Origin: an uncultured Bacillota bacterium
GTDB lineage: Bacteria > Bacillota_I > Bacilli_A > RF39 > UBA660
Length of the DNA: 64,000 nt
Assembly: GCA_947644695.1 (NCBI GenBank)
Contig: CANSAJ010000004.1
Coordinates: 5,750 to 69,749 of the forward strand
Direction: 5' to 3'
The position numbers were made by a program, and so were the translations under genes. Positions 1,639 through 21,004 of the stretch are shown piece by piece; the stretch's first letter is position 1, and the number at the start of each line of letters is the position of its first letter. The notes under the pieces are model-generated. The model ran no database searches and had not been told where the DNA came from. It saw only the letters and a list, made by a program, of their open reading frames with translations.

Positions 1639-1647
1639 TGGTATAAT
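1639..1647 (+). promoter_or_regulatory. Extended -10 element (TGgTATAAT) ahead of the radical SAM operon
   Basis: TGGTATAAT sits in the 62-nt gap between 1619 and 1682, about 35 nt upstream of ATG 1682. No good -35 was seen. Confidence 0.3.
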
Positions 1648-1681: not shown

Positions 1682-2848
1682 ATGAGAAAAAAGTTAGGAA
1701 TAATTGATGCTGATTTGTTAGATAATGGAACTAGACATCCTAATTTGGCGTGTATGAAAATATCTGCTTATTATAAAGATAAGGGATATAATGTATCACT
1801 ATTAGATTCTTATGAGAATTTAGATAGTTATAATTTAGTCTTTATAAGTAAGGTTTTTACTTTTACAAAAGTTCCTATGACTATTTTTAAAAGAGGAATT
1901 TGTAAGGATATAAATCATCCAGAAGATAGTTTAAAGAAGAATATTAGAATAGGTGGTACAGGTTTTTATTATGATAAAGCAGAGGATTTGCCTTATGAAA
2001 TAGAGCATCATATGCCAGATTATAGTTTATATGAAGATTATATTTTGGAAAAGATAAAGAATGGAGAACCTAGGAGTAGGTATGTAGATTATTTAGATTT
2101 TTCTATAGGATTTGCTACTAGAGGTTGTTTTAGAAAATGTGATTTTTGTGTTAATAAAAAATATAATAATGTATTTATAGCATCACCGATTAAAGAATTT
2201 TTTGATGAATCGAAACCTAAGATTTATTTATGGGATGATAATTTTATGGCTTCTCCTGATTTTAATTCTATTTTAGATGATTTAATTGCTACTGGAAAAC
2301 CATTTCAGTTTAGACAAGGTCTTGATATTAGACTTATGACTGGCGAGAAAGCTATGAGGCTTGCAAAGGTTAAGTATTATGGAGATTATATTTTTGCATT
2401 TGATCATATAGAGGATAAGGATATAATTTCTCGTAAATTAGAGTTATGGAGGAGATATTCTAATAAGTCTACTAAACTTTATGTTTTAACGGGTTATGAT
2501 AGCCAAGATGAAGTGGATATAAAGAATACATTTGAGAGAATAAAGATACTTATGAAGTATGGATGTTTACCTTATATTATGAGATATGAAGATTATAAAA
2601 ATTCTAGATTTAAGTCAATGTATATTCAGATTGCTAGGTGGTGTAATCAACCACAGTTTATTAAAAAGCAAAGTTTTAGGCAATATTGTGAGGATAATGA
2701 AAGGTATCATAGGATGAAGAAGAAAGATGTCGTTAAAAATTGTGCGTGTTATCAAACTATGTTAGATTTTGAAGAAGAATTTCCTGATATTGCAAAAGAA
2801 TATTTTGATTTAAGATGGGAAGACTTAAATGAATATTTAAAGAAATGA
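1682..2848 (+). CDS. Radical SAM enzyme with an N-terminal Rossmann/B12-binding-like domain
   Basis: ATRGCFRKCDFCVNKKY carries a canonical CX3CX2C cluster motif (Cys149/153/156, nt 2126-2149). The N-terminus LGIIDADLL...HPNLACMKISAYYKDKGYNVSLLD resembles the cobalamin-binding-like domain of class B radical SAM enzymes. Confidence 0.75.
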   Translation: MRKKLGIIDADLLDNGTRHPNLACMKISAYYKDKGYNVSLLDSYENLDSYNLVFISKVFTFTKVPMTIFKRGICKDINHPEDSLKKNIRIGGTGFYYDKAEDLPYEIEHHMPDYSLYEDYILEKIKNGEPRSRYVDYLDFSIGFATRGCFRKCDFCVNKKYNNVFIASPIKEFFDESKPKIYLWDDNFMASPDFNSILDDLIATGKPFQFRQGLDIRLMTGEKAMRLAKVKYYGDYIFAFDHIEDKDIISRKLELWRRYSNKSTKLYVLTGYDSQDEVDIKNTFERIKILMKYGCLPYIMRYEDYKNSRFKSMYIQIARWCNQPQFIKKQSFRQYCEDNERYHRMKKKDVVKNCACYQTMLDFEEEFPDIAKEYFDLRWEDLNEYLKK

Positions 2849-2849
2849 A

Positions 2850-3539
2850 GTGATAAGTATGAGTTTTTATGAAGAGTGGGAAAAAGTTTATAGTATTGAG
2901 AAGAGTAGTAATTTATATTTTGATGAGTTTTTGAATTTATCTCAAGATTCTTTGAAGTTATTTTTAGAAGGTCCAGATGATAAGCTTGTTCAAATGGTAC
3001 GTTTTTTGGTTAATATACCAATTAAAGAATTTATTTTAAGAATAAATTCATCTAAAGATTATAGTGCTCGAGATATAGTTCAGTTTAGTAATTTAGATAA
3101 TGCAATAATGGGGGTTTCTTCGGCTTTAAAGTTAAAGAAAGTATCTTTGTCTTTTTTGGAGATTGGTAGAATTTTATTTTTTAATAAGAGTGATGTTGCA
3201 TGTAAAAAATATGGAGAGAATCATTCTAAACTTGCAAGAGAACTTTCTATGGTTACTTTTGAAAGAAAGAGAGATGTAAAAATTTCTAATACACCATTTG
3301 GAGTTTTTAGTTTATCACTTGATAATGATGATAAGATTCAGGTAGTGAGAAGATTATTACTTCGTAATCCTTTTATTCAGACTTTTATTTATAATGCAAG
3401 AAACGGAAAAGTTAAGTATAGTGATATGACTAAGTGTTTGGCTTATAAAACATCTTTAAGAAGAAAATCTAATGTAAAAAAAATTATTAATATTATATTA
3501 GAAGGTGAAGAATGCTTGGATAACATTATATGGGAGTAG
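2850..3539 (+). CDS. Hypothetical protein (229 aa), operon member
   Basis: The ORF starts 1 nt after the radical SAM stop (GTG 2850 or ATG 2859) and ends 3 nt before the next ATG. No motif was recognised. Confidence 0.55.
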   Translation: MISMSFYEEWEKVYSIEKSSNLYFDEFLNLSQDSLKLFLEGPDDKLVQMVRFLVNIPIKEFILRINSSKDYSARDIVQFSNLDNAIMGVSSALKLKKVSLSFLEIGRILFFNKSDVACKKYGENHSKLARELSMVTFERKRDVKISNTPFGVFSLSLDNDDKIQVVRRLLLRNPFIQTFIYNARNGKVKYSDMTKCLAYKTSLRRKSNVKKIINIILEGEECLDNIIWE

Positions 3540-3542
3540 TAA

Positions 3543-5618
3543 ATGAGTTTAAGAGAATTAGATATAAAAAATTGTTATGAAACTACTGGAGATAAAATGC
3601 AGTTATTAGAAAAATTTTATATTCCAGTTTTACAAGAAACAGTTATATATTATAGGATAGCTGGATTTTTTAGTAGCAGTAGTTTATTAGTGGCATCTCA
3701 AGGTATAGAGGGATTAATTAAAAATGGTGGTAAGATGTGTTTGTTAATTTCTCCAGAGTTGTCAGAGCAAGACTATTTAATTATAAAGAATTCTCAAGAA
3801 AAGAAGTTAGATGAATCATTAAGTATTTTTTCTCAAATGGATATAAATGATTTTCCTAAAAGTGATAATTTGCAGGCTTTGGCGTGGTTACTAGCAGCAG
3901 GAAGGCTTGAGATAAAAATAGTTGTTCCTAAGAATTCTGCTGATAGTTTATTTCATCAAAAGATAGGCATTTGTTATGATAAAGAAGGTAATATGATTTC
4001 TTTTAGTGGTTCTATAAACGAATCTGCTCGTGCATGGCTTTACAATATAGAGGAATTTAAAGCCTTTAAATCTTGGGCTCCTGGGCAATCAGAATATTTT
4101 TATAATGATTTAAAAAAATTTAATTCTTATTGGAATAATGAGAGAACTGATGTAGCAGATGTTTATGATTTACCTGAATCATTTAAGAAAAAAATAATCG
4201 ATGTTAAACCTAGAGATATAAATGAGCTTTCTATTATGAAAAAGTATAGAGAGAAAGCTTTACAAAAAGATACTTTACTTTCTTTATTTGCTCATCAAAG
4301 ACGAGCTATTGAGATTTGGAAATCTAATAATTATAGACTTTTAATGGAAATGGCTACTGGAACTGGTAAGACTAGAACTGCTATTGGTTGTTTTTTGCAT
4401 TTAAAAGAATCTCTTAATAAATTCTTAGTTATTGTTGCAACTCCATATGATACATTATCTAGGCAATGGGAAAAAGATGTGAATGATTTAAATATTAAAT
4501 TTGATAGAAGTGTTATTGTGGATAGTACTAATTCTAAGTCATATGTTGATTTAGAGAAGATACTTTTGGATTTGAATATAGACTTAATAGATAATGCTAT
4601 TATTTATACTACACATAGAACTGCATCTGGAGATAAATTTATTAATATAGTAAAATCACACAATAGAAATTTAAAAATTTTATTTATTTGTGATGAAGTA
4701 CATGGAATAGGTGCCGATAAGCAAAGGGAAGCTTTGTTAGATATTTATCAATATCGTATAGGATTAAGTGCAACTCCCGAAAGGCTTTATGATGAAGAAG
4801 GGACTAATTTAATACGAAGTTATTTTGGAGATAAGTCATTTGAGTTTACAATTAAAGATGCTTTAAATACTATTAATCCTATAACTGGAAAACCTTTTTT
4901 AAATCCATTTTATTATTATCCATGTTTTGTGGATTTGACAGAAGAGGAGCTAGGAAAGTATAAAGATTATTCTAGAAGGATAGTAATTGAGCAGTCAAAA
5001 GAGAATCCAGATAGAGATATGATTGAAAGCTATTTAATGGAACGTGCTAAAATAGTTAAAAATGCTTGTAATAAATTATCTGTTGTAAAAACAATAATTG
5101 ATAGTATGAATATTAAAGAGAAGATTAAAGATACTATAATTTTTTCTACTAATAAACAACTTGAAGAGGTTATGTTATTTCTAAGTGAAATGAATATTAC
5201 TAGGAGTAAAGTGACTGAAAATGAATCAACTACTAAACGTATGGGTATAAATGATTATACTGAAAGAGAAGAGATAATAGATCAGTTTAGAAAAGGCAAC
5301 ATACAAGTTTTAATTGGAATTAAGTGTTTAGATGAAGGAATAGATATAAAAAATGCTAGAGTGGCAATTTTAATGGCTAGTAGTACTAATCCAAGAGAGT
5401 ATGTGCAAAGAGTAGGTAGAGTTATTAGAACTGATAAAGATAAAGATTTTTCTGTTATATATGATTTAATAGTTAGAACTTATTCTGAAGATAATGTCAA
5501 GAATAGAATTTTAGAAAAAGAAGCAAAAAGAGCTATGTTGATAGCTAGTAATGCAGTTAATTATGAACAGGTTAAAGAAGCTTTTGAGAGGAATGGAGTG
5601 ATTTTAGATGGCAATTAG
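3543..5618 (+). CDS. PLD-like (HKD) nuclease domain fused to an SF2 (ResIII/DEAH-type) helicase
   Basis: N-terminal HKD-type motif FHQKIGICYD...SGSINES (aa 138-160). Helicase motif I is MEMATGTGKTRTA, motif II FICDEVHG, motif III GLSATPER and motif VI QRVGRVIR. GGGAG RBS upstream. Confidence 0.85.
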   Translation: MSLRELDIKNCYETTGDKMQLLEKFYIPVLQETVIYYRIAGFFSSSSLLVASQGIEGLIKNGGKMCLLISPELSEQDYLIIKNSQEKKLDESLSIFSQMDINDFPKSDNLQALAWLLAAGRLEIKIVVPKNSADSLFHQKIGICYDKEGNMISFSGSINESARAWLYNIEEFKAFKSWAPGQSEYFYNDLKKFNSYWNNERTDVADVYDLPESFKKKIIDVKPRDINELSIMKKYREKALQKDTLLSLFAHQRRAIEIWKSNNYRLLMEMATGTGKTRTAIGCFLHLKESLNKFLVIVATPYDTLSRQWEKDVNDLNIKFDRSVIVDSTNSKSYVDLEKILLDLNIDLIDNAIIYTTHRTASGDKFINIVKSHNRNLKILFICDEVHGIGADKQREALLDIYQYRIGLSATPERLYDEEGTNLIRSYFGDKSFEFTIKDALNTINPITGKPFLNPFYYYPCFVDLTEEELGKYKDYSRRIVIEQSKENPDRDMIESYLMERAKIVKNACNKLSVVKTIIDSMNIKEKIKDTIIFSTNKQLEEVMLFLSEMNITRSKVTENESTTKRMGINDYTEREEIIDQFRKGNIQVLIGIKCLDEGIDIKNARVAILMASSTNPREYVQRVGRVIRTDKDKDFSVIYDLIVRTYSEDNVKNRILEKEAKRAMLIASNAVNYEQVKEAFERNGVILDGN

Positions 5619-5802
5619 TGAAAAGATTGTAAGTAGGATAAATGAATTAAATGAAGATGAAAAATTGAAGGAATTGATGTTTACAATTTTGGAGATGGAG
5701 AATTATGGACATTATAGATATATTGATAGATATGATACTTTAATTCAAGAATATATTAGTAAAGAGAAGGTAGGAGAGGATAGTAATGGTCAAGATAAAT
5801 AA
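5608..5802 (+). CDS. Small hypothetical protein (64 aa), operon member
   Basis: ATG is preceded by GGAGTG. It overlaps the helicase stop by 11 nt and the next gene by 17 nt. No motif was recognised. Confidence 0.45.
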   Translation: MAISEKIVSRINELNEDEKLKELMFTILEMENYGHYRYIDRYDTLIQEYISKEKVGEDSNGQDK

Positions 5803-7792
5803 AATTCAGTTTATTAATTATCGTCAGTATAAAAATTATTCTTTGGATTTTAATAGTAATGGAAGTAATAATTTACATATTATTAAAGCAAAGAATGGAA
5901 CTGGAAAGACTACTTTTTTGAATGGTATTTTGTGGTGTCTGTATGGGGAAGAAAAATATATTTCTAATAAAAATAAATCTTTACCAGTTTATAATCAATC
6001 TATTCTTTCGTCTTTTAAGCCATCTAGCAATGTTGAGGTTAGTGTTATTTTAGAAATTAGTGATAAAGATAGTAATATTGTTTTTACTAGGACACAATTA
6101 TTTAATATTGTAGAAGATCCTTTAAATGGTAATAGAAATGCAATTTCTTTAGGTTCGTCAGAATTGAAAGTTTTTGTAACTGAGAAGTCATCAAGCACTA
6201 ATTCTAAAGTTTATGAGGATGTATTGGAAACTGGTAAGTTTGTGAAGAAGTATTTTGATAAGGACATATTTGATTATTATTTCTTTGATGGAGAAAATTT
6301 AAAAGATTATTTTGATGAATCGAGTTCAGAAAGAATAAAGTCTTCTGTTTTTAGTATTTCTCAGGTAACTTTATTAGGTAATACTATTGCTCATTTGAAT
6401 AATTTAATAGATGGTAAGACTAGACAGATATCTAAAATTGGTGATGAAGATGTAAATGTTTATGATAAAGAAAGAAATTTAGAAAGAGAAATTAGAGAAA
6501 AAGAACAAGAAAATGTTAGACTTGCTGGAGAGATTAAGAAGTTACAAGAGGATTTTGAAGAAAAAGATTCTTTACTTAGAAATTATGCTCCCGTTAAACT
6601 TAGACAAGAAAGACGAGAGGTTCTTGATAAAGAACTTTTGGATTTGGAGAGTCAATTTAATGAATTTAAGAAAGATCAATATTCATTTATAAAGAGATAT
6701 TTAGTTTTGTTTAAGTTATATCCTAGAATTAAATCTACATTAAATATGATTAATAAAAAACAGTCAGAAGGGCTTTTGCCTCCTGTTATTGATAGGAATT
6801 TGATTTTGGATTTGGTTGATAAAAAGGTTGATACATGTCCTGTATGTGATAATCATATAGATGAAAAAGCACTTGTTCATTTAAGTGAACTTTTAGGGCA
6901 GCTTAATATTTCAACAGTTGCATCTCATAAATTGATTGAGATTAAAAGTAGTTTAGAGTCAGCGGTTGATGAATGTAAAGAATATAAAGATAAGAAGGCC
7001 AAACTCATTAGTAGAGAGAAGGAATTAAATTTTAAAATAGAAAAAGTAAGGGAAGAATTAAGTGATATTCATTCATATTTATCTACTTATTCTAATATGG
7101 ATTCAAATAGTATTAATGTTTCGCAAATAGAGTTAGATAGGAATCGAGTTAGAGATGAGTTGGATGTTCGTAAAAAGGTGATTGTATTAAATGAGAATAA
7201 TATTGAAATTTGTAAGGAAAAATTAGTTGGTATAAGAAAAGATATTGAAAATATAGAAGCTAGAGATAAGAATAGAACTTTTTTAGGTGAACAGCTTACA
7301 CTTTTGAGGAAGCTTTATGCTAATTTTTCTGGTATTCAAAATGATATTATGTTGGGTATTAGAGATGAAATTATGCGAAAAACTTGGCAAAGATTTGATT
7401 CTATGATTTGGAAAAAGAAGACTTTTAAATATTTAGATATTAATGATTCATATGAAATATCTGTTTATAATATGGAAGGTAATGAGATGACAGCTTCTAT
7501 GAGCGCTACTGAGCATATGGCTTTAGCTTATGCATTTACGTTTGCAATTCATGATGTTTCTGGTATAAATTCCCCTCTTGTTGTTGATTCGCCTTTAGGA
7601 CGTGTTTCTGATGAAAATAGAGAACTTATGGCTAAGGTACTTCTTAATGTGTCTCGTGAGAAGCAAATTATTATGTTGTTTACACCTGATGAGTATTCTA
7701 AAAATGTTGCTAATATTTTTAATGATGCATCTAGTTTAAGAGTTATTGCTTTGGATGGTAATGAAAAGGAAGTTCAGGAGGTTAGTTGTTAA
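5786..7792 (+). CDS. DndD-family SMC/Rad50-like ABC ATPase
   Basis: Walker A is KAKNGTGKTTFLNGILWCLYG. A long central coiled coil contains a CPVC hook-like motif. The C-terminus VVDSPLGRVSDENRELMAKVLLNVSREKQIIMLFTPDEY matches the D(T/S)PLGRLD...Q(V/I)I.L(S/F)T signature of DndD/SspC-type ATPases. Confidence 0.85.
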   Translation: MVKINKIQFINYRQYKNYSLDFNSNGSNNLHIIKAKNGTGKTTFLNGILWCLYGEEKYISNKNKSLPVYNQSILSSFKPSSNVEVSVILEISDKDSNIVFTRTQLFNIVEDPLNGNRNAISLGSSELKVFVTEKSSSTNSKVYEDVLETGKFVKKYFDKDIFDYYFFDGENLKDYFDESSSERIKSSVFSISQVTLLGNTIAHLNNLIDGKTRQISKIGDEDVNVYDKERNLEREIREKEQENVRLAGEIKKLQEDFEEKDSLLRNYAPVKLRQERREVLDKELLDLESQFNEFKKDQYSFIKRYLVLFKLYPRIKSTLNMINKKQSEGLLPPVIDRNLILDLVDKKVDTCPVCDNHIDEKALVHLSELLGQLNISTVASHKLIEIKSSLESAVDECKEYKDKKAKLISREKELNFKIEKVREELSDIHSYLSTYSNMDSNSINVSQIELDRNRVRDELDVRKKVIVLNENNIEICKEKLVGIRKDIENIEARDKNRTFLGEQLTLLRKLYANFSGIQNDIMLGIRDEIMRKTWQRFDSMIWKKKTFKYLDINDSYEISVYNMEGNEMTASMSATEHMALAYAFTFAIHDVSGINSPLVVDSPLGRVSDENRELMAKVLLNVSREKQIIMLFTPDEYSKNVANIFNDASSLRVIALDGNEKEVQEVSC

Positions 7793-7793
7793 T

Positions 7794-8237
7794 ATGAAGG
7801 ATAGAATTTTTATAAATGGTAAATATAGAGATTTTGTAGATGAACTAAAAAATAAGAAAATTTTAGATATTGATAATACTACTGAAAATAAAGATATATT
7901 TATTTTGTTAGCGGCTCTTGGTATTGATTCTCCGAAAGAGATTGATGGAGCAAAGCATGGTTTTATTAGGAAAGAATATCTTCATACTTATGAAATTGCT
8001 TTGATAACTGCTATGACTTTGGGAAATATAAGTGAAAATGAAGATGTGGATAAGTATTTTGTTGGAAATACATTTTATGATAATGCAGAAAAGTTTGTGG
8101 AGGCAGGATTTGGTGTGTTAAAGCAAAAGATAGAAGATGATAGTGCTGATGAAGAGTTGTTTAGAAAAAAATTAATGGAAGAGCTTGAAATACTTTATGA
8201 TGCTAATGTTAAGGCAGATTTAAATGTGGAAGTTTAA
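7794..8237 (+). CDS. Small helical protein (147 aa), possibly related to Dnd-system-associated small proteins
   Basis: ATG 7794 lies 1 nt after the DndD-like stop, with AGGAGG upstream; the ORF-track start 7746 is inside the previous gene. The pattern DIFILLAALGI...IALITAM...AEKFVEAGFGVL recalls small proteins found beside DndD-like genes, but this is recollection only. Confidence 0.45.
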   Translation: MKDRIFINGKYRDFVDELKNKKILDIDNTTENKDIFILLAALGIDSPKEIDGAKHGFIRKEYLHTYEIALITAMTLGNISENEDVDKYFVGNTFYDNAEKFVEAGFGVLKQKIEDDSADEELFRKKLMEELEILYDANVKADLNVEV

Positions 8238-8358
8238 AAAATGAATTAAAAGGAGACTATGATTTTGGGATTCTCGGGCTCTTTTTTTGTGTATTTACTA
8301 GTATAGGGTTTGTTTTTCTGCTATAATTTATTATGAGAAATAATTGGTAGGAGGGATT

Positions 8359-8715
8359 ATGTCAAGGATAGTAAAAAATAAAGAATTGGTAAATACAAGA
8401 TTAGCAACAAATTATGGGGGGTGGATGTATTGTGAAAAGTGTGGCGAAAATATAGGATATTTATGTTATTCAACTTATGATAAGATCGAATTAGATTATA
8501 AATGTAATTGTGGAAATCATGGTAGTGTTTTATTGGATTTTGAAGATAGTAAGGTAGGAAAAAGTAGTACTTCAGAGTTAGTTATGGTGAAAACAAGATT
8601 TTGTTGTCCAAAAGATAATGAGCCTTTAATTACAATACTGGATAAAAAAGTGACTAATTATGATTTGAAGATTACTTGTAAATCTTGTGAAAGTATTTAT
8701 CAGAAGTCAAAATAG
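8359..8715 (+). CDS. Cys-rich protein with two zinc-ribbon-like CxxC pairs
   Basis: CEKCGEN...CNCGNHG and CCPKDN...CKSCES. AGGAGGG lies just upstream of ATG 8359. Confidence 0.5.
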   Translation: MSRIVKNKELVNTRLATNYGGWMYCEKCGENIGYLCYSTYDKIELDYKCNCGNHGSVLLDFEDSKVGKSSTSELVMVKTRFCCPKDNEPLITILDKKVTNYDLKITCKSCESIYQKSK

Positions 8716-9178: not shown

Positions 9179-9829
9179 ATGAAATGTGAAAAATGCGGGA
9201 ATATAATTGAAGATAAGTATATTTGGTGTCCAGTTTGTGGTACTAAAAAACCAAAGGGTGTAATAGTTAATAATACTGCTAGTTCTACTCAAGTTGATAA
9301 TAAATCGCAGGAAAATGAAAATATAAGTATATCATGTGGGAAATGTGGTAAAAAAATTAAATTAGGCTGTAATTTTTGTAATAATTGTGGGAATAAATTA
9401 ATAGGTGAAAATATTAGTAGTTATAATGAATCTTTAGTTGTGTATTGTGAGTGTGGACAAAAACTTGAATCAGGATGGAAGTTTTGTTCAAATTGTCAAA
9501 GACCAATCACTGTTGAAATAAGAAATGAAAAAAAGAGTGTTAATGAGAAACAAAATGACGCAAATATATATCTTTTAATATATGCAATTTCTGTTGGTGT
9601 TTATATGTTTGGTGGTCTTATTCCTTTTGTTTCATATAGTTCTTCATTATGCGGATTAGTGGCTTTAGTAACTATTATAACAGGGAAAATAAAATGTCCT
9701 AATAGTGTTATAATTAAAGTATTATTTTGGATTACGATAGTTTATATTATTTGTTTATTTATTTTGATGTTGTGGATGATTGTAGTATGTAATGATATGC
9801 TTGATTCGCTTCAATCTTGTCCAGGGTAG
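9179..9829 (+). CDS. Membrane protein with three N-terminal zinc-ribbon repeats
   Basis: CEKCGN..CPVCG, CGKCGK..CNNCGN and CECGQ..CSNCQ are followed by hydrophobic C-terminal helices. Confidence 0.6.
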   Translation: MKCEKCGNIIEDKYIWCPVCGTKKPKGVIVNNTASSTQVDNKSQENENISISCGKCGKKIKLGCNFCNNCGNKLIGENISSYNESLVVYCECGQKLESGWKFCSNCQRPITVEIRNEKKSVNEKQNDANIYLLIYAISVGVYMFGGLIPFVSYSSSLCGLVALVTIITGKIKCPNSVIIKVLFWITIVYIICLFILMLWMIVVCNDMLDSLQSCPG

Positions 9830-10954: not shown

Positions 10955-12415
10955 ATGGAAATTTATGAAAAACTTGTTAATCAAATTTCTGAAGTTAAAT
11001 ACTTGTGTACTGAAAATTCTCGTAGATATCGTCCCATAATGAGATGTTTTTTTAATCACTATGAAAGACTTGAGTATTCTTTATATAAAGAAGATGTTTT
11101 TGAAGAATTATGTACAAATGAATTTTTTTATGATTATACTATTAATGAATGTGAAAGAGACCTAGATACTTTAGTGGAATGGATGAGTCTGACTAAAACC
11201 CATGATACTAAAAATGCCACTTCTATAGAAGAATTTAAAAATAAGAAGTTTAGATATCAAATGACTGAGTACGCTATAGAGATCGAAAGACTTGCTATTT
11301 CTCTTGAAGATATGGAAATTAAAACGGCTTCTTTAGAGCCTAAACTTTTTGATCGATTAAGAATGAATATTTCTAAGATGGAAGAAGTAGGTAAATTGTC
11401 ATTAGAAGAAGTGAATGAAGTTTGGAATAATATAAATGATGACTTTACTAAGCTAAATCAAAATTATCAAGATTTTTTGAAAAAGTTTAATGAAGAAAAA
11501 AGCGAAGAACTTATGCAAAGTGTACTGTTTTTACAATTTAAAAGAGATATTGTTAAGTATTTAAGAGAATTTGTTAAAGGATATCAAAAAAATATTTGTT
11601 ATATTAAAGATAGCATCAAAAAAATTAGTAATGCTGATATTAATTTATTTTTAAAAAGTATAGTTGAATATTTAAAAAAGACACCTACAGTTCTTAATAA
11701 TTTTAATTTTGAGTATTTTGAAGAAGTTAATAGAAATAAGATTTATAATATTTTTAAATGGTTTACAGGTACAGAAGTTGAAATGAGTGAAGGGGATAAG
11801 TTAATTGCTGCTACGGATAGTATTATTGTAAAAATAACTAAGTATGCTAATTCTCTTATTGAACTTCATGGTAATTTAACTAATAGAAAAGAAGAGTATA
11901 AGCATCTTTGTAAATTATTTGATAAATTAGATAATGTTAATGAGTGTCATAAATATTCATCTGTAATTTTGGGTATTCATTCTGTTAGACATTATGTTGG
12001 AAATAGTAATATTAATACTGATACTATACCTTGTACTTATGATATACCTTCAACTTCAATTATGCTTTCTTCTAGAACTAAATTTAAAAAAGAGAAAGTT
12101 TTTATGGAGGCTTTAAAAGATAAAAGTGCAGAAAAAAAGAGATTATTAGAAGAGTATAGAAAAGAAGTAGAGGAAAATAAGAGAATTCTTAAAAACTTAG
12201 TTAAGGATAAAAAGATAGAATTAAAAGGGAAAGTAAATTTATCTAAAGTAGAGAGAAGATATATACAAAAGTTACTTGCTTCTTCTTTGAAAAAGGAAAC
12301 AGAGTTTGGACTTACTTACAAAGTAATTAAGCATGATGGAAAGTGCGAAATAAATTCTCCTGATGGTGTTTTTGTAATGAATGAAGTTGAAGTTTTGTTT
12401 GAGGGGGATATTTAA
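10955..12415 (+). CDS. jetA: Wadjet JetA (MksF/kleisin-like; TIGR02677-type)
   Basis: First gene of four overlapping genes of 486, 388, 1359 and 425 aa. That order and those sizes match the TIGR02677/02678/02680/02679 cluster later named Wadjet. The N-terminal YRPIMRCFF motif fits the family as I remember it. Confidence 0.75.
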   Translation: MEIYEKLVNQISEVKYLCTENSRRYRPIMRCFFNHYERLEYSLYKEDVFEELCTNEFFYDYTINECERDLDTLVEWMSLTKTHDTKNATSIEEFKNKKFRYQMTEYAIEIERLAISLEDMEIKTASLEPKLFDRLRMNISKMEEVGKLSLEEVNEVWNNINDDFTKLNQNYQDFLKKFNEEKSEELMQSVLFLQFKRDIVKYLREFVKGYQKNICYIKDSIKKISNADINLFLKSIVEYLKKTPTVLNNFNFEYFEEVNRNKIYNIFKWFTGTEVEMSEGDKLIAATDSIIVKITKYANSLIELHGNLTNRKEEYKHLCKLFDKLDNVNECHKYSSVILGIHSVRHYVGNSNINTDTIPCTYDIPSTSIMLSSRTKFKKEKVFMEALKDKSAEKKRLLEEYRKEVEENKRILKNLVKDKKIELKGKVNLSKVERRYIQKLLASSLKKETEFGLTYKVIKHDGKCEINSPDGVFVMNEVEVLFEGDI

Positions 12416-13581
12416 TGGAAGTTAGAAGTAAAGAATTAAAATATCTTTTAAGTAATTATTGGTGTGTTAAAGAATTTAACACTAAGGAGTATTTTGATAT
12501 AAAAAATAATTTAGATTATTATAGAGAATTTATAAGAGATAAACTTGGTAGTAAGTTAATAGTTAATGATAGGTTTATTAAACTTGAAAAGATTCCATCA
12601 GTTCCTAAAACTTATATGGGAATTCCAAATTTTAATGAAAAGTTAGAGTATGTTTTACTTTTTATAATTTTACTTTTTTTGGAGGATAAACCTAAATCTA
12701 CACAATTTATTTTATCTAGTCTTATTGATTATATTAGTAATACATCTATAAAGTTAGAGATTGATAATGTTCCTAACTGGAATGTTTTACATCATAGAAA
12801 GTGTTTAGTTAACGTTATTAAACATTTATGTTCTGTTGGTGTTATTAAGGCTATAGAAGAAGAAAATTTTGCTGAAGATAGTGCTGCTGAGGCTCTTTAT
12901 GAAACAACTGGATTGTCAAATTATTATGTTAGAGAGTTTAAGGGTAATATTTTAGATTATGAGACACTGGAAGAATATGTTAATGATGAATTTAATAATC
13001 AAAGTATTTTAGTAGGAGATGTTAGGAGATATAAAGTTTTTAGACATTTATTTTATTCTCTTTGTGCATTTAAATGCGATTTAACTATGGCAGAAGAGGA
13101 TTATTTTAAGAAGTTTAGAGGTAGTATTAGTAATGAAATAGGAAAGTATTCATTAAGTGAGTTAGAAATAACAAAAAATATGGTGACATTAGTTAATAGT
13201 AATGAAAGTAGAGAAAAACAAGATTTTCCTAATAATAAAGCGATTAGTGATATAGTTTTACTTTTTAATAATAATGTACTTTCTAAAATAGAATCTGGTG
13301 AAATAAAATTAAATAATGAAGAATGTGCATTTGTTTCAAGAGAAACTGTTGCTAGAATTTTAAAAGAAGTAAGAGAAGACAATGTTATGTATTTTAGTAA
13401 AAATTATAAAGACATGACATTAGATAATTTTATTAGAGAAGTTACTAATTATTTAGTAGAGTATGATTTTGTTAGGAAAAGTGAGTTTGGATATAGTATT
13501 ATGCCAAGTGTTTCTAGATTAATTGGCTATATTCCTAAAGATAGTGAAGTTCAACTTAATTTATTTGGAGGTGAAGAATGA
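12415..13581 (+). CDS. jetB: Wadjet JetB (MksE-like; TIGR02678-type)
   Basis: Called on position and size within the four-gene cluster. Its start overlaps the jetA stop (ATG at 12415). Confidence 0.7.
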   Translation: MEVRSKELKYLLSNYWCVKEFNTKEYFDIKNNLDYYREFIRDKLGSKLIVNDRFIKLEKIPSVPKTYMGIPNFNEKLEYVLLFIILLFLEDKPKSTQFILSSLIDYISNTSIKLEIDNVPNWNVLHHRKCLVNVIKHLCSVGVIKAIEEENFAEDSAAEALYETTGLSNYYVREFKGNILDYETLEEYVNDEFNNQSILVGDVRRYKVFRHLFYSLCAFKCDLTMAEEDYFKKFRGSISNEIGKYSLSELEITKNMVTLVNSNESREKQDFPNNKAISDIVLLFNNNVLSKIESGEIKLNNEECAFVSRETVARILKEVREDNVMYFSKNYKDMTLDNFIREVTNYLVEYDFVRKSEFGYSIMPSVSRLIGYIPKDSEVQLNLFGGEE

Positions 13582-16500
13582 TGAAAAGATTTAGAATTAC
13601 TAAAATAGGACTTTTAAATTTTTGGCTTTATGATGAAGAAGAGTATGATTTTTATGGTGGAAAATTAATTTTAAGAGGTATAAATGGTAGTGGGAAATCA
13701 GTTACTATGCAATCTTTTATTCCTCTTATTTTAGATGGAAATAAAAGTCCTGATAGACTAGATCCTTTTGGTTCTAAAGAAAGAAAAATAGAAGATTATA
13801 TTTTGGGAGACGCTGATGGAGTTCAAAAAGAGGAGTCAATCGCATATTTATATATGGAAACATATTATGAAGAAGAGAATAAATATATAACTATTGGACT
13901 TGGATTTAGAGGGAGAAAAGGAAAGCCAGTGGAATCATGGGGATTTGCTCTTAAAGATGGTAAAAGAGTTTTAAAAGATTTTTATTTATATAAAGATCCT
14001 GTTAATAAGATTCCACTTTCTAAAAATGAACTTAAGAGTAGACTTGGAGATTTTAATGAGTTTACGGATACTATGAAAGATTATAAAGCTATGGTTAACA
14101 GGCTATTATTTGGATTTCCAAATTTAGATGTTTATGATGAATTTATTAAGCTTTTATTACAGTTAAGAAGTAACAAACTTTCAAAAGATTATAAACCTAC
14201 TAATTTAATAGATGTTTTGAATAAAGTTTTACAGCCTTTATCTGAAGAAGATTTAAGACCATTGTCTTTAGCTATAGAGCAAATGAATGGTGCTAAGGAA
14301 AGAATAGAAACTTTAGAAAGTAATTTAAAAAAATTAAATGATTTTTTGAGAGTTTATAGAAATTATAATGAGGCTGTAATTCTTGAAAAAGCAAGAAACT
14401 ATAAGAAAGAAAATGATGAATATAATTTAGAAAAGAAACAACTTTTAGATACAGAAAATGAAATAAATAGTTTGAAAGAAGAATTAGAAAATAAAAATGT
14501 TAGACATGGTGAAGTTTTAGAAGAACTTGATATAAATTTTGAAAATAAGAAACAATTAGATAATACAGATTTAAATAAAAAGGTTGAATCTCTTTCAAGA
14601 ATTAATGAAAGTATTAATGTATTAAATGATAAAGTTAGTGTTTTAGATAAAAATTTAGAAAATGATGAAGAAACTAAACTTGAACTTGATATTAAAATTA
14701 GTGAAGTATCTAATGAGATTTATGGCTTAAAAAAAGATATTACAGATTTGTGTGCTTCATTAAAAGATACTAAAGATGATAGTTATTTTGGTGAAATAGC
14801 GTTTTTTGTGGATGAACTTATGCTTAATATGGATAAAGAATTTTCTTTTGATAGTATTTTTATGTCACTTAGAAGTTATTTAGAGAAAATTAATTTGTTG
14901 ATAACTTATTTTGAAGAACAATCAAAGTTATTTAGTGAGAGTGAAAGTACAAGAATTGAAAGAGAAAAGCTTGAAAGGGATTATAAATTCTTAGAGAGTG
15001 ATATTAAAGGACTTGAGAGTAAACGCAAAGATTCGATTAAAACATGGGAAGAAGATTTTATAAATTTAATAAATAATAATAAATTTTTAAAATTAAGTGA
15101 TTTAAATAAGAAACAGATTTTTGGTTATATTGAAGATTATAGTTTAAGTAATTTTGAAAAAATTGTTAGATTATATAAGTCATGTTCAAATGATTTAATA
15201 AATAATATTATTCGTAATAATTTAATTTTAGATAGTAAGAAAGATAAAAAAAGAGAAGAACTTTCTTTATTAGAAATTCAGTATGATGAAGTTAATAATG
15301 CTGATACTTTAGATCTTCCTACAAATTTAGATACAAACAGAATTCTTGAAGAAAATGGTATTAATAATATACCTTTGTATAAGTGTATTGAATTTAAAAG
15401 TGATGTTAGCGATAATTTTAGAGATAAGATAGAGGCGGCATTATTTAGTTCTAATATTTTGAATGCTAGAGTTATAAATGAAAGTGACTTATCGAGAGTG
15501 AGAAATCTAGATGTTGAAGTTTTATTTCTAACTAAGGCTTCTAAGAAAAAGAATAATTTACTTAAGTATTTTGATGTAAATGCAGATGATGTAAACATTA
15601 ATAAAAAATATATCTGTGAAATTCTAGAAAGCATAAGCGTTAGTGAAGAAGATGAAGTTTCAATTTTAGTAGATGGTATTTCAAAGATAGGCGCACTTAG
15701 AGTAAAAGCTGATAAGAAATATAAGCAAATGTATATTGGTTATAAGAAAAGGCTAGAGCTTAAAAATAAGAAATTAAGTGAACTAAAAGAAAGCATGAAT
15801 TTTATTAAAAACGAAATATCTAAAATTGATGATTTAATTTTGGATGGGAACGCACAAATTTCTGTTATTGAAGAAGAAGAGAGCAATTTACCTAACAATG
15901 ATAATATTAATGAAATAATTGCTAAAATAAATGAATTAAATATTAAGCTTAGTTATAATGATGAAAGACAAAAGGAGTTAGAAAAAGTTCTTTCTTTATT
16001 TGATTTAAAACTAGGTGAGTTAAGGGATAAAATAATGGAAAATAGCAAAGGATTAAGTATTCCGCTTAATTTGGAACAGTATAAGATAGTTTCTAAAGTT
16101 GTTGTCTCTATTAAAGAAAGTTTGCAAGAATTAAAGAATTTACATTCAAATTATGTTAATAAGTTAATAACTATTGAAGGTTTTAAAGAGCGCTTAGATT
16201 ATATTATAAATAATATAGCATTTGTAAAAGCTGAAAGAAATGAAAAAGAGAGAGAATTAAATGTTAATATTGCTTCAAGAGATAAGATAAATGAACTTTT
16301 AAATAGTAAAGAGTATGTAGACGAGAAAGAAAAAATTATAGAATTAGATAGTTTGATTAAAGACCTGTCAAATGAAAAAGAAGACTTGGTTAGAAGTATT
16401 TCTAAATTAGAAGAAAGATTAAAAAATAAAAATGAATTATTTGCTACACTTAAAGAAAGTGTTAACTTTAAAGAAAATCGTTCTAATGTATTTAGAGAAG

Positions 16501-17657
16501 TGTTCTTGAGAGAATATAACTTAGGTTACCTTTATAAGAATGTGGATGACGATATTGATCTAAAAGTTAATAGTGTTATTAGTGATTATGGAAGTAAAAA
16601 GAATATTTCTGTGGTTGAGACTTCAAATAATTTTTGGGCTATGTATAATAAGTATAGTTTGGATTTAGCTGATTATTCGTTTAAAAGTATTACATTATTT
16701 AATGATTACGATGGAGATAATGAAATATTTAAAAAGATATATGATAGTAATGTAAGAATAGATATAACGGCTATGTATCAAGGTGTGTCAGTATCAGCGA
16801 TAGAATTAGCTGATAAGATATATGATGATATTGAAGAAGGAAAATTGCTTATAGATAAAGAAGATAGACATTTATTTGAAGATATTTTACTAAATACTGT
16901 TGGTAATAAGATTAGAGATAGGATACATGCATCAAATGAGTGGGTTAGTAAAATAAATGAAATTATGAGAAAAATGCAAGAAAATAGTGCGCTTAGTTTT
17001 AAGCTTGTGTGGAAAAGTGTTAGTGCAGAGAGCGAAGGAGAATTAGACACTCGAGAAATAGTTAGAATGTTAAAGATGGAACCCGGTCTTTTAAGTGATG
17101 TTGACAGTGTGAAGATAACTAATCATTTTAGAAGTAAACTTAGAAAAGCAGAGGAACTTTATAAGGATAGTTATGTTTCGTTTTATAAGATTGTTGAAGA
17201 TATTTTAGATTATAGAAATTGGTTTTCTTTTATACTTATGTATCAGAGAAAAGGAGATAATTTAAAAGAACTTACTGATAAAACTTTTTCTAAGTTTAGT
17301 GGTGGAGAAAGAGCTAAAAGTATGTATATACCTCTTTTTGCCAGTGTTTTTGCTAAATATAATATGGCAAGAAGTGATGCTCTTAGAATAATCGCCTTAG
17401 ATGAGGCTTTCGCGGGAGTAGATGAAGATAATATTAGAGAAATGTTTGGTATTCTTAAATTTTTAGATATTGATTATATTATTAATTCTCAAGTTCTATG
17501 GGGTGATTACGATACTATTCCCGATATTTCAATATGCGAACTTATTAGACCTGCTAATAGTCAAGTTGTAACTGTAGAAAGATATAGATGGAATGGTAAA
17601 TATAAAGAGATTATTAATAATAGAAAAGAGTATAATGAGGAGTTAGAAAATGCATGA
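13578..17657 (+). CDS. jetC: Wadjet JetC (MksB-like SMC ATPase)
   Basis: 1359 aa. Walker A is LRGINGSGKSVT, followed by about 1000 aa of coiled coil. C-terminal signature FSGGERAKS and Walker B RIIALDEAFAGVDEDN. Confidence 0.9.
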   Translation: MMKRFRITKIGLLNFWLYDEEEYDFYGGKLILRGINGSGKSVTMQSFIPLILDGNKSPDRLDPFGSKERKIEDYILGDADGVQKEESIAYLYMETYYEEENKYITIGLGFRGRKGKPVESWGFALKDGKRVLKDFYLYKDPVNKIPLSKNELKSRLGDFNEFTDTMKDYKAMVNRLLFGFPNLDVYDEFIKLLLQLRSNKLSKDYKPTNLIDVLNKVLQPLSEEDLRPLSLAIEQMNGAKERIETLESNLKKLNDFLRVYRNYNEAVILEKARNYKKENDEYNLEKKQLLDTENEINSLKEELENKNVRHGEVLEELDINFENKKQLDNTDLNKKVESLSRINESINVLNDKVSVLDKNLENDEETKLELDIKISEVSNEIYGLKKDITDLCASLKDTKDDSYFGEIAFFVDELMLNMDKEFSFDSIFMSLRSYLEKINLLITYFEEQSKLFSESESTRIEREKLERDYKFLESDIKGLESKRKDSIKTWEEDFINLINNNKFLKLSDLNKKQIFGYIEDYSLSNFEKIVRLYKSCSNDLINNIIRNNLILDSKKDKKREELSLLEIQYDEVNNADTLDLPTNLDTNRILEENGINNIPLYKCIEFKSDVSDNFRDKIEAALFSSNILNARVINESDLSRVRNLDVEVLFLTKASKKKNNLLKYFDVNADDVNINKKYICEILESISVSEEDEVSILVDGISKIGALRVKADKKYKQMYIGYKKRLELKNKKLSELKESMNFIKNEISKIDDLILDGNAQISVIEEEESNLPNNDNINEIIAKINELNIKLSYNDERQKELEKVLSLFDLKLGELRDKIMENSKGLSIPLNLEQYKIVSKVVVSIKESLQELKNLHSNYVNKLITIEGFKERLDYIINNIAFVKAERNEKERELNVNIASRDKINELLNSKEYVDEKEKIIELDSLIKDLSNEKEDLVRSISKLEERLKNKNELFATLKESVNFKENRSNVFREVFLREYNLGYLYKNVDDDIDLKVNSVISDYGSKKNISVVETSNNFWAMYNKYSLDLADYSFKSITLFNDYDGDNEIFKKIYDSNVRIDITAMYQGVSVSAIELADKIYDDIEEGKLLIDKEDRHLFEDILLNTVGNKIRDRIHASNEWVSKINEIMRKMQENSALSFKLVWKSVSAESEGELDTREIVRMLKMEPGLLSDVDSVKITNHFRSKLRKAEELYKDSYVSFYKIVEDILDYRNWFSFILMYQRKGDNLKELTDKTFSKFSGGERAKSMYIPLFASVFAKYNMARSDALRIIALDEAFAGVDEDNIREMFGILKFLDIDYIINSQVLWGDYDTIPDISICELIRPANSQVVTVERYRWNGKYKEIINNRKEYNEELENA

Positions 17658-18927
17658 TTATACTAAGTTCTTTAAGAGTAATTCGGGCTATAATAGATTT
17701 GTAAAAGGTATTTATGATAAATATAGGTCTTTAGGCAAGTTTGCTGGTGTTGTAAAGTTAAAAAATTTATCTTCTGATGAGGCTAATGTACTTTCAAGAC
17801 TTTTTGGGGTTTCAATGAATTCTTCTGAAAATGTTAATTTGTCTATAAAGAAATTTTTGAAAATTATGAGCGAGTCTAAGTATAATGATTTTGATATTGC
17901 TACTTTTATAAGTGAATATTTTGACATTTCTTTGGAAAGTAAGAGTGCTGAAAAAGCAAAAAAAAGAGAAACTGAAATGGAATTTTATGAGCAATTTTGT
18001 GTTGGTAATTCTCTAGGTAATGCTTGGATGAGAGAAGTGGTTTCTCAACGAGACGTTTCTTTTAAAATTATTCATGAAAGGTATAATAAGGATAAGGTTA
18101 GTTTAGAAAGAGAGATTGTTAATATAATTAGTTGTATTAATAATTTACCTCAAGAGTCTACACTTTTATCTATTTATTCAGCTTCTATAACTGGAGATCC
18201 ACATTATCTTGATTTAGATGGAACCCATTCTTCTCTTTTCTTTTATGCTTTATGCTATTTGGATGAAATTAAATATCCTGTAAGTAGAGAAGATAAAATT
18301 TTGTTATTAAGTAAGTTTAATATTTTGATAGATAATTTATCTAATTCAGTTATTACTTATAAATTGATAAGTGATAGTAATGCTATTAATGAATTTTCAA
18401 AAAATGGTGAGGCCTTAGTTTTGACTATGCAAAATATTATGAATAGAAAGGTCTTTAGTGGAATTAATAATTGTGTGTTTGTTTTTGAAAATCCTTCTAT
18501 ATTATCTTATATAATTGCAAATAAACTTAATATATCAGTTGTCATTGTTGGTGGTTTTCCTAATACATGTGTTTATTTATTGCTAGATAAACTTGTGAAA
18601 AATGGATGTGCACTTTATTATAATGGTGATTTTGATCCAGAAGGGCTTTTGATAGCCCAGATGTTAAAGGATAGATATGAGGATAAGATTAATTTATTAT
18701 GTTATGATAAAGAGAGTTATGTTAAATCTAAATCAAAAAAACTTATAAGTGAGTCTAGATTAAAGAAGTTAGATAAAGTATTCAATCGCGATTTAATAGT
18801 TATGAAAAAATTACTTTATGAAAACTGTATTTCAGGTTATCAAGAGAATTTAATGGAGATATTGAAGATGGAGGTTGAAAAGATTTTAAAATCTAACTTT
18901 TCTATTACTATTTCAGAAGATAGATAA
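17650..18927 (+). CDS. jetD: Wadjet JetD (Toprim/topoisomerase VI-like nuclease subunit)
   Basis: C-terminal Toprim motifs FVFENPS (Glu) and YYNGDFDPEGLLIA (DxD). It overlaps the jetC stop by 8 nt. Confidence 0.85.
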   Translation: MHDYTKFFKSNSGYNRFVKGIYDKYRSLGKFAGVVKLKNLSSDEANVLSRLFGVSMNSSENVNLSIKKFLKIMSESKYNDFDIATFISEYFDISLESKSAEKAKKRETEMEFYEQFCVGNSLGNAWMREVVSQRDVSFKIIHERYNKDKVSLEREIVNIISCINNLPQESTLLSIYSASITGDPHYLDLDGTHSSLFFYALCYLDEIKYPVSREDKILLLSKFNILIDNLSNSVITYKLISDSNAINEFSKNGEALVLTMQNIMNRKVFSGINNCVFVFENPSILSYIIANKLNISVVIVGGFPNTCVYLLLDKLVKNGCALYYNGDFDPEGLLIAQMLKDRYEDKINLLCYDKESYVKSKSKKLISESRLKKLDKVFNRDLIVMKKLLYENCISGYQENLMEILKMEVEKILKSNFSITISEDR

Positions 18928-19774: not shown

Positions 19775-20833
19775 ATGACCAAAAAAGAAGAATGGAATAT
19801 TGAATTATCACAATATATAAAACAAGGTGAACCAAGTAAAATTGAAAAAGCAAAAAATTGGGAAACTGCTATTGGGTTACAGAAGGTAGATGGTCTTAAT
19901 CCCTCTAAATATTTAATTGGAACTGCTAAAGAACATATTGAAGGAAATATAGATATTAAAGAAGTAGAAAGCAGAATAAATAATTATTATAAGGTTCTTA
20001 ATGAAAGAAAAATAGAAGAACAAGAAAGTACTGAAGAAGCAGATAAAGTATCAGTAAGAATAACTGAGATTTTAAGTGAAAATTCATTTAATTTTAATCC
20101 TACAGAACTTATTAGTATTCATGCAAGATTATTTAAAGGTGTATATAAACATGCTGGTCAATTAAGAGATTATGATATGACAAAGAATGAATGGGTGTTA
20201 AATGATGACACAGTAACTTACGCTCCATATGGAACGCTTATGGCAGCTTTACAATATGATTTTGAACAAGAAAAAAATTTTTCATATAAAGATTTATCAT
20301 TTGATGAATCAATAAAACATTTATGTAAATTTACTTCAAATATTTGGCAAGTTCATCCGTTTTGTGAAGGTAATACGAGAACAACAGCTGTATTTGTTAT
20401 TAAATATTTAAGAACATTTGGATTTAAAATTAATAATGATGTCTTTGCAGAAAATTCTTGGTATTTTAGAAATGCTTTGGTAAGAGCTAATTATAAAAAC
20501 TTTGAAAAAAATGTATTCGAAGATATATCATTTTTAGAAAAATTTTTTTATAATCTTTTATCTAATGCAAATTATGAATTAAAAAATAGATATGTTCATA
20601 TTGATTATGAACAGGAAAATAATCAAGAAAAGACGATACATAACGAATATACATTGGAAGAACAAGCTATTATTAATATTATCAAAAACAATCCAACAAT
20701 TAAACAAGAGGAGATTGCTAAAGAAATTAATAAATCAGTAAGGACTGTAAAAAATAGAATGATAGATATGCAGGAAAAAGGAATAATAGAAAGAAAAAAT
20801 GGGAAAAGAAATGGTGAATGGATTATTTTATAA
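19775..20833 (+). CDS. Fic-domain protein with a C-terminal winged-helix DNA-binding domain
   Basis: Fic core motif HPFCEGNTRTTAVF (HPFx[D/E]GNxR). C-terminal wHTH-like IKQEEIAKEINKSVRTVKNRMIDMQEKGIIERKNGKRNGEW. AGGAGG RBS. Confidence 0.85.
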   Translation: MTKKEEWNIELSQYIKQGEPSKIEKAKNWETAIGLQKVDGLNPSKYLIGTAKEHIEGNIDIKEVESRINNYYKVLNERKIEEQESTEEADKVSVRITEILSENSFNFNPTELISIHARLFKGVYKHAGQLRDYDMTKNEWVLNDDTVTYAPYGTLMAALQYDFEQEKNFSYKDLSFDESIKHLCKFTSNIWQVHPFCEGNTRTTAVFVIKYLRTFGFKINNDVFAENSWYFRNALVRANYKNFEKNVFEDISFLEKFFYNLLSNANYELKNRYVHIDYEQENNQEKTIHNEYTLEEQAIINIIKNNPTIKQEEIAKEINKSVRTVKNRMIDMQEKGIIERKNGKRNGEWIIL

Positions 20834-20859: not shown

Positions 20860-21003
20860 ATGATGGGAAATTTTTATAGGAAATCAATGTTGAAAAAGTG
20901 TAATTTACATATTCATACAATAAAATCGGTATATGATAATGGCAAATATGGTGATGAAGAAAAGTATAATGGTTTATTAAAAAAACTAATAGGTGGTGAA
21001 TAG
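20860..21003 (+). CDS. 47-aa micro-ORF, possibly a remnant of a PHP-domain gene
   Basis: AGGAAGTGA RBS. Its stop lies 1 nt before the hsdR ATG. CNLHIHTIKSVYDNG resembles the N-terminal (D/N)LHxHTxxSxxDG motif of PHP phosphoesterases. Confidence 0.25.
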   Translation: MMGNFYRKSMLKKCNLHIHTIKSVYDNGKYGDEEKYNGLLKKLIGGE

Positions 21004-21004
21004 T

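Follow-up and report, generated by a model that had tools for sequence, protein, structure and literature searches.

What does a radical S-adenosylmethionine (SAM) enzyme do at the head of an operon that otherwise encodes the nuclease, the helicase and the ATPase of a restriction system? The question is raised by a stretch of 64,000 nucleotides, here called the window, from an uncultured Bacillota bacterium of the RF39 lineage (assembly GCA_947644695.1, contig CANSAJ010000004.1, positions 5,750 to 69,749), in which the gene of such an enzyme, R, is followed by the gene of a partner protein, X, and then by the four genes of a PbeABCD restriction module. The answer favoured here, to which a probability of roughly 55% is given, is that R and X would form, by analogy with known modification systems, a module that marks DNA by radical SAM chemistry so that self can be told from non-self, and as such the modification half to the PbeABCD restriction half (positions 3543-8237). 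All coordinates are collected in Table 1.

Judged by its predicted structure, R belongs to the radical SAM fold. The translation of its open reading frame (ORF) holds FATRGCFRKCDFCVNKKY, with the motif GCFRKCDFC and the cysteines at positions 149, 153 and 156 in CX3CX2C spacing, and these three residues occur in every one (100%) of 82 homologues, which stem from 80+ loci, and are likewise invariant across an alignment of 43 sequences. The AlphaFold2 model built on that alignment, with a predicted local distance difference test score (pLDDT) of 90.7 and a predicted template modelling score (pTM) of 0.84, has an N-terminal beta-alpha-beta domain of the Rossmann/flavodoxin-like type (residues ~1-110), then a barrel-like core that corresponds to a partial TIM barrel, and finally C-terminal helices, the last region being basic, Cys-containing and family-specific and carrying RWCNQPxFxKKxSFRxxC. 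Its one poorly defined part is the cluster loop 150-158, as would be expected of a model that lacks the metal cluster. When the model was compared with the PDB by Foldseek, radical SAM enzymes alone were found at E<=0.001, with MiaB at 1.6e-7 and AprD4 at 8e-5, and beyond this threshold follow TsrM (1.2e-3) and RimO (0.03); the matches of MiaB, AprD4 and TsrM span the N-terminal Rossmann-like domain of R. No model of Pfam (searched to E<=10, PF04055 Radical_SAM included), NCBIfam or PADLOC matches R, the PDB sequences gave no match to R (phmmer) or to the profile of its family, and in none of the sources consulted by homology does the family have a name. PF04055 is matched weakly by 22 of 33 more distant relatives (best 9e-5), and PHROG 9298, annotated as 'radical SAM domain protein', matches R at 2e-54. 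The invariance of the triad, the confident model, the Foldseek result, PF04055 in the relatives and PHROG 9298 together argue against a chance match of the motif, while the reductive cleavage of SAM by R is only predicted.

The original prediction, made from the letters of the DNA alone, had already recognised the radical SAM triad, had placed a Rossmann-like domain ahead of it and had likened this arrangement to class B enzymes, which have a cobalamin-binding domain. The first two points are borne out by the conservation and by the model, whereas the third holds at the level of the fold only: the N-terminal domain aligns structurally with TsrM and AprD4, but the best neighbour is the methylthiotransferase MiaB, no match of R to PF02310 (B12-binding) was obtained with Pfam, and AprD4 itself has a B12-like domain and makes no use of cobalamin. 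Structure prediction followed by a Foldseek search, one of the checks that had been proposed, gave MiaB and AprD4, then TsrM, as the nearest characterised relatives. A MiaB-like methylthiotransferase was nevertheless rejected as an identity for R, as there is neither an N-terminal UPF0004 auxiliary-cluster Cys triad nor a TRAM domain (by Pfam, and by the helical C-terminus of the model); the only cysteines of the N-terminal domain are C24 and C74, neither of which is conserved. A viperin was rejected because there is no PADLOC match to prokaryotic viperins (pVips), the triad lies mid-protein at 149-156 and the architecture is another one, in line with the earlier statement that R is no pVip look-alike, and a 'DNA modification/repair radical SAM protein' of the TIGR03916 type was rejected for want of an NCBIfam match at E<=0.01. 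In the C-terminal region, where an auxiliary Fe-S cluster was considered, C336 is conserved in 100% and C321 in 95% of the homologues but C354 in 84% and C295 in 80%, a pattern suggestive of a candidate Zn or Fe-S site.

By their matches, and in the case of PbeB and PbeD by position and size, the genes downstream of R and X make up what looks like a complete restriction module of the PbeABCD (CxC-ABC/DndE) kind. The PADLOC model of PbeA is matched over the full length of the protein (2.6e-195); PbeA also matches TIGR04095 dnd_restrict_1, the title of which is 'DNA phosphorothioation system restriction enzyme' (1.6e-93), and the Pfam domains ResIII, Helicase_C and PLDc_2, and its translation shows the HxKx4D...GSxN motif. 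PbeC matches PADLOC PbeC at 5.1e-83 (residues 3-636) and, more weakly, DndD at 1e-29, together with AAA_23 and SMC_N of Pfam. The ORFs at the PbeB and PbeD positions of the window have no hidden Markov model match; homologous ORFs of 55-65 amino acids stand at the PbeB position in 5 loci, and a homologous ORF of 137-170 amino acids directly follows PbeC in 25 loci. The operon is compact, its genes abut or overlap, and it has a promoter-like site of its own as well as a ribosome-binding site AGAGG at 1668-1672, 9 nucleotides ahead of the ATG of R. The putative extended -10 element was not listed by the consensus scan because a good -35 is lacking, and scans for promoters and terminators generally said little, the DNA being AT-rich (52 promoter-like sites were counted where 55 are expected). 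The original prediction had spoken of a nuclease-helicase operon, which holds for PbeA with its HKD and SF2 parts, for the tight packing and for R as the first gene, but the PbeABCD identity and the partner ORF at 2859-3539 had gone unrecognised.

CxC systems were reportedly first described in a 2020 paper on ABC ATPases. In the account of Rakesh, Aravind and Krishnan (2024), PbeA is an HKD-SF2 helicase, PbeB a small protein that evolves fast and PbeD the DndE cognate of a CxC-clade ABC ATPase, and as modification partners of CxC systems they list either dnd genes or MTaX1 together with cytosine C5/N4 methylases (PMC10853773). Neither kind of partner was found here: Dnd/Ssp modification proteins are absent among the window ORFs scanned and from the flanks (up to 10 kb) of related loci, and cytosine C5/N4 methylases with MTaX1 were not found in the window. 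In the gene order, R-X stands where Dnd/Ssp or methylase genes normally sit beside Pbe.

One argument for a modification module is that R keeps the same kind of place in other genomes while its neighbours change. R was sought in one genome per species, altogether 185,579 species representatives, and was found in 318 of them with 48-80% identity, mostly in anaerobes of gut, rumen and sediment that belong to the Bacillota, Bacteroidota, Actinomycetota, Chloroflexota, Lentisphaerota and Melainabacteria and include a Thermoplasmata archaeon; in a collection of 5.8 billion sequences, more than 6,600 proteins match R. For the neighbourhoods, ORFs were called in 89 loci (84 non-redundant) with flanks of up to 10 kb, the neighbours were clustered and representatives annotated. 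The 84 loci come from Bacillota, Bacteroidota, Actinomycetota, Chloroflexota, Lentisphaerota and a Thermoplasmata archaeon. In 66 of them, and across phyla, R adjoins defence nuclease/helicase modules in an abutting arrangement on the same strand. PbeA-B-C-D, as in the window, is the most frequent of these modules (type A, 29 loci), followed by a set in which a pair of ParB-like proteins is accompanied by a 137-aa protein and by a DpdE/ZorD-like SNF2 helicase of 489 aa, with X usually last (type C, 18 loci; the helicase matches PADLOC DpdE at 5e-38). A DUF262-DUF1524 nuclease of the GmrSD type is found in 9 loci, plus L087 (type B), an HKD(PLD)-X fusion with a PF20472 PD-(D/E)xK protein in 6 loci (type E), and DndF, DndG and DndH (PADLOC E-values 6e-146, 1e-115 and 0, respectively) in 4 loci, all from Clostridium, where the opposite strand encodes a further X (type D). 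A 2025 review distinguishes three restriction branches of phosphorothioate systems, namely dndFGH/sspFGH, sspE (DUF262-DUF1524) and pbeABCD (PMC12707154), and R-X, by the annotation of its neighbours, occurs with all three kinds. One conserved enzyme that is swapped among many nuclease modules is, by analogy, the pattern of modification modules. The original prediction had named a housekeeping family in conserved non-defence neighbourhoods as the contrary outcome; what was found is R beside defence nucleases and helicases in these 66 loci and, in the window, inside a defence island.

The type C module (L020 11159-15034; 17 other loci, e.g. L021, L023, L052 and L084) is apparently an undescribed helicase/nuclease system itself, composed of a ParB-like protein of 336 aa, the 137-aa protein, the SNF2 helicase and a second ParB-like protein of 327 aa, and its PADLOC matches, to PD-Lambda-5_A and PDC-M38A, are weak and N-terminal only. 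Two further proteins that look defence-like were each seen next to R-X in a single locus, for both of which the motifs were called by eye: an AIPR/Abi-like protein of 615 aa (L039 11931-13778) and a protein of 908 aa with the look of SIR2-like plus HATPase domains (L029 11829-14555).

The usual companion of R in these loci is X. In the window, the stop codon of R occupies 2846-2848 and the ATG of X lies at 2859; X is present in 56 of the 84 loci, and in 27 of the 84 it forms the C-terminal part of a single protein with R. The long homologues of R, many of ~630 aa, are such R-X fusions, which can be recognised by KYGENHSK and RRKxN. Adjoining or fused in most loci, R and X are, by their gene arrangement, one functional unit. 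Neither Pfam nor NCBIfam nor PADLOC gave a match to X, and profile searches retrieved only unnamed proteins of ~226 aa. The AlphaFold2 model (pLDDT 96.4) is helical with beta-hairpin wings and indicates a fold of winged-helix repeats; compared by Foldseek with the PDB and BFVD, it had no match at E<0.05 and weak winged-helix matches to ROQ, MukE, MarR and ArsR. X occurs also in fusion to the HKD nuclease of the type E loci, and in one locus it is fused to an S24 peptidase of the LexA/CI type (GNSMEP; L060 5864-7012), where it replaces the DNA-binding domain. With this fold and these two fusions, X is predicted to be a DNA-binding type of domain. The median pairwise identity is 57.7% for R and 31.3% for X, yet X has the invariant motifs QFS, KYGENHxK, R and T..RR..N (residues Q78, S80, K120-Y-G-E-N-H125, K127, R172, T201, R204, R205 and N208); as far as the alignments tell, X evolves fast around an invariant polar motif while R is strongly conserved. 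Nine loci have two copies of X, which are only 27-41% identical within a locus and are thus not recent duplicates. In Bacteroidales, X is also found fused to a C-terminal region of ~580 aa in which no domain was recognised (L062, L064 and L066, at ~15130-17540).

R, as opposed to X, is also carried by phages. By tblastn, homologues of R with 30-46% identity were found in 17 phage records, and X had no tblastn match in phages. In PV036431, an orphan R has a ParB-methyltransferase fusion on one side and another DNA methyltransferase on the other, in the Methanomassiliicoccales virus BK063680 it adjoins a ParB-like gene, and other phage copies are situated within replication modules. Two prophages fit into this picture: in L010, an R that is 80% identical to that of the window follows replication genes and lies upstream of HNH/TerS/TerL, and in L028 R is found between TerL and the portal gene. 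The phage copies and those of L010 and L028 have neither X nor an accompanying nuclease module. This distribution resembles that of orphan DNA methyltransferases, and the likeness speaks for an R that suffices for catalysis by itself, does no harm and is of use to a phage. In PV036431 (L090 12425-13077), the gene directly after the terminase encodes a 'phosphoadenosine phosphosulfate reductase', of a DndC/SspD-like family that in phages is often tied to DNA modification.

How a DNA-marking module of R and X might work can be outlined as follows. R would bind a [4Fe-4S] cluster via C149, C153 and C156 and reductively cleave SAM, and the resulting 5'-deoxyadenosyl radical would lead to a covalent mark on chromosomal DNA. 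The winged-helix protein X would tether R to the DNA and link it to the nuclease module, and it might either pick the sites, as a shared specificity factor, or read the mark, the latter being suggested by its invariant pocket-like motif. PbeC and PbeD would scan the DNA, and unmarked DNA would be attacked by the HKD-helicase PbeA, with the mark protecting the cell's own chromosome. Among the possibilities that the original prediction had put side by side (a self-marking DNA modification, a modified nucleotide or a signal), the comparative evidence favours self-marking, a function deduced from context. Beyond this, it is a tentative proposal, rated slightly below an even chance, that R is the founder of a new class of DNA writers, which would mark DNA directly and in a chemically new way, for instance by a C-alkyl or methyl group at an unactivated carbon or by a modification of sugar or backbone, and would replace, together with X, phosphorothioation or methylation as a self-tag. 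Held with the same reserve is the corollary that this self-tag would be read by the Pbe, DndFGH and SspE-type modules and by two further ones, and that phages took over the writer as an anti-restriction gene.

Several points weigh against a self-marking function. To our knowledge, there is no precedent for the direct writing of a host self-mark on DNA by an enzyme of the radical SAM type. Enzymes of the GmrSD family are classically modification-dependent (type IV), and it is only the parallel with SspE that makes a GmrSD-type nuclease beside a self-marker fit. None of the five modules is found in 18 of the 84 loci; in 6 of them the flank is too short to tell, but in 12 it is adequate, at least one of these (L010) being a prophage. 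The four DndFGH loci, all from Clostridium, may go back to one event. The invariant KYGENHxK falls on the putative recognition helix of X, which makes it less likely that X is simply a variable subunit conferring sequence specificity. The best structural neighbour of R, MiaB, acts on tRNA, so RNA is a possible substrate. Lastly, it has been argued that DndFGH and CxC/Pbe systems are able to act alone (Rakesh et al., PMC10853773), and adjacency to R-X is consequently no proof that they depend on a mark.

The alternative that survives best, although it is unlikely, is a sensing or regulatory role of R-X, in which R would make a signal (a small molecule or nucleotide) or act on one of the system's own proteins or peptides, such as PbeB or the nuclease, and thereby turn the nuclease module on or off during infection. 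One conserved module that is swapped among effectors is also typical of sensor-effector defence, radical SAM enzymes with a Rossmann-like N-terminal domain, to which the structural matches AprD4 and TsrM belong, often have a peptide or a small molecule as substrate, and the invariant polar motif of X could form a ligand pocket. Such a role is however hard to square with orphan R genes of phages and prophages near DNA methyltransferases and packaging genes, as a host alarm would not be expected there, and with the winged-helix DNA-binding fold of X and its fusion to an HKD nuclease; PbeB, moreover, is found in CxC systems without R, and R with modules without PbeB.

Distinctly improbable is a modifier of RNA like MiaB/RimO (tRNA/rRNA), be it as a mobile housekeeping enzyme or in translation-directed defence or counter-defence. 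MiaB, the top structural match at 1.6e-7, is a tRNA methylthiotransferase, and the top, non-significant fold matches of X are RNA-binding ROQ winged helices, but R lacks the auxiliary Cys triad and the TRAM domain of the methylthiotransferases, its partners are all directed at DNA (HKD/HNH/PD-(D/E)xK nucleases, SF2/SNF2 helicases, DndFGH and ParB-like proteins), and its phage copies lie among genes of DNA replication and methylation. Still lower is rated the possibility that R is itself an effector which, guided by X, damages or tags invading DNA by radical chemistry (break, crosslink or adduct) so that the nucleases finish it. Radical SAM chemistry can abstract hydrogen from deoxyribose and spore photoproduct lyase acts on DNA, and the association of R with a DNA-binding X and with nucleases would suit such a role, yet R is found alone in phages and prophages with up to 80% identity, where uncontrolled DNA damage would be costly, and harmless modification enzymes typically occur in just this way, as orphans with no gene for immunity or regulation beside them. 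That R makes an antiviral nucleotide analogue is very improbable, even though the radical SAM enzymes of defence known so far, the pVips and that of Ophion, act on nucleotides: PADLOC found no pVip, the fold neighbours are not viperins, the triad lies mid-protein behind a Rossmann-like domain, the obligate partner of R is a DNA-binding protein, and a phage would defeat itself by carrying a synthase of chain terminators. Finally, a housekeeping or biosynthetic gene that merely happened into a defence island, where unrelated genes do gather and where the R of the window lacks a family annotation, is effectively refuted by the comparative neighbourhood data, that is, the conserved same-strand abutting layout in 66 of 84 loci, the R-X and HKD-X fusions and the patchy occurrence in 318 of 185,579 species.

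Table 1. The R-X-Pbe operon and further genes of the surrounding defence island (positions in the window)
Feature	Position	Strand	Basis and remarks
Putative extended -10 promoter, TGgTATAAT	1639..1647	+	read from the sequence
R, radical SAM enzyme, 388 aa	1682..2848	+	ATG start; ORF and motif, conservation, AlphaFold2 model, Foldseek
X, partner of R, 226 aa	2859..3539	+	homologues, fusions, AlphaFold2; alternative GTG at 2850 gives 229 aa
PbeA, HKD (PLD) endonuclease + SF2 helicase fusion	3543..5618	+	PADLOC, TIGR04095, Pfam
PbeB-position small protein, 64 aa	5608..5802	+	position and size; overlaps PbeA end and PbeC start
PbeC, CxC-clade ABC ATPase	5786..7792	+	PADLOC, Pfam
PbeD-position protein, 147 aa, presumed DndE cognate	7794..8237	+	ATG at 7794; the ORF caller began at TTG 7746
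Wadjet type II, complete	10955-18927		PADLOC: JetA2 1.8e-140, JetB2 1e-96, JetC2 0, JetD2 1e-109; directly downstream of the Pbe operon
Fic/DOC + winged-helix protein, candidate system PDC-S72	19775-20833		PADLOC 4.7e-124
Type I restriction-modification	20993-26817		HsdR 1004 aa, HsdM 550 aa, HsdS 390 aa
Reverse transcriptase, retron-type RT-protease (type XI)	27076-28737		3.6e-149
Large serine recombinase	29093-30700		Resolvase + Recombinase + Zn ribbon

The R-X-Pbe operon is part of a defence island of ~30 kb that is closed by the large serine recombinase and may be a mobile element. Immediately upstream of R and on the same strand, a pRiA4b ORF-3-like protein (PF07929, 2.7e-15) is encoded at 1008-1619, which was seen upstream of R in none of the related loci, and between the Pbe operon and Wadjet lie the genes of two small Cys-rich proteins with multiple CxxC zinc-ribbon motifs (8344-8715 and 9179-9829), the second of which has C-terminal membrane helices.

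If R-X does mark DNA, radical SAM chemistry would join methylation, phosphorothioation and 7-deazaguanine incorporation as a means of genome self-tagging, and a DNA modification not yet seen would probably be revealed. It would further explain the self/non-self discrimination of Pbe, DndFGH and GmrSD-type modules that have no Dnd/Ssp or methylase partners, which is a matter of debate (PMC10853773, PMC12707154), and thousands of unannotated genes would gain a function. The habitats of the family, that is, anaerobes of gut, rumen and sediment and their phages, are missed by the screens in E. coli and Bacillus to which the discovery of most defence systems is owed. A sequence-directed radical modifier of DNA and a domain that reads its mark could, in that case, also serve as tools.

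Among known systems, the restriction half of the window is most like that of DndCDEA-PbeABCD (Xiong et al. 2019, PMC6459918) and of the CxC ABC ATPase-DndE systems (PMC10853773), with the same order of PbeA, a small protein at the PbeB position, PbeC and a PbeD-position protein, but the partner is a radical SAM enzyme with a novel winged-helix protein and neither dndCDEA nor a methylase with MTaX1; both papers make no mention of a radical SAM partner of Pbe/CxC, and no publication on R, on R-X or on a radical SAM enzyme linked to Pbe, DndFGH or GmrSD modules was found in the full-text literature. Compared with DndABCDE-DndFGH and SspABCD-SspE, R-X is placed like the phosphorothioate-writing genes, its neighbours being DndF/G/H in 4 loci and DUF262-DUF1524 nucleases of SspE-type architecture in about 10, whereas next to R-X there is no cysteine desulfurase, no DndC/SspD resembling phosphoadenosine phosphosulfate reductase and no DndD/E, and the GmrSD-type proteins are not SspE orthologues, matching PADLOC SspE only at 8e-4 and on the HNH end. 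A mark made by R-X need not involve sulfur. With classical restriction-modification systems and the orphan methyltransferases of phages, R-X has the logic in common, that is, a conserved writer, exchangeable nucleases and a writer that occurs alone in phages near replication and packaging genes, but R is a radical SAM enzyme and not an SN2-type SAM methyltransferase, and X is unrelated to known target-recognition domains.

MiaB/RimO, TsrM and AprD4 have the same two-domain fold as R, a Rossmann/flavodoxin-like N-terminal domain followed by a partial barrel with CX3CX2C, from which R differs by the lack of sequence-level similarity, of the methylthiotransferase Cys triad, of TRAM and of a PF02310 match, and by a basic helical C-terminus of its own. 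The Dpd 7-deazaguanine system is a non-methyl DNA modification tied to helicase and nuclease genes, and the SNF2 helicase of type C resembles DpdE. There, the free base precursor is supplied by QueE, a radical SAM enzyme, and inserted by the transglycosylase DpdA, whereas no tgt/DpdA-like gene accompanies R-X. The pVips and Ophion, the latter composed of a radical SAM enzyme, a PHP protein and a PRTase (bioRxiv 10.1101/2025.09.30.679545), are radical SAM enzymes of anti-phage systems as well, but they have other architectures and partners and make, or are proposed to act on, nucleotides, in contrast to R with its DNA-binding partner and its DNA nucleases. What is already known, in sum, is the restriction half and the logic of modification plus restriction; what is new is the proposed writer R and its partner domain X.

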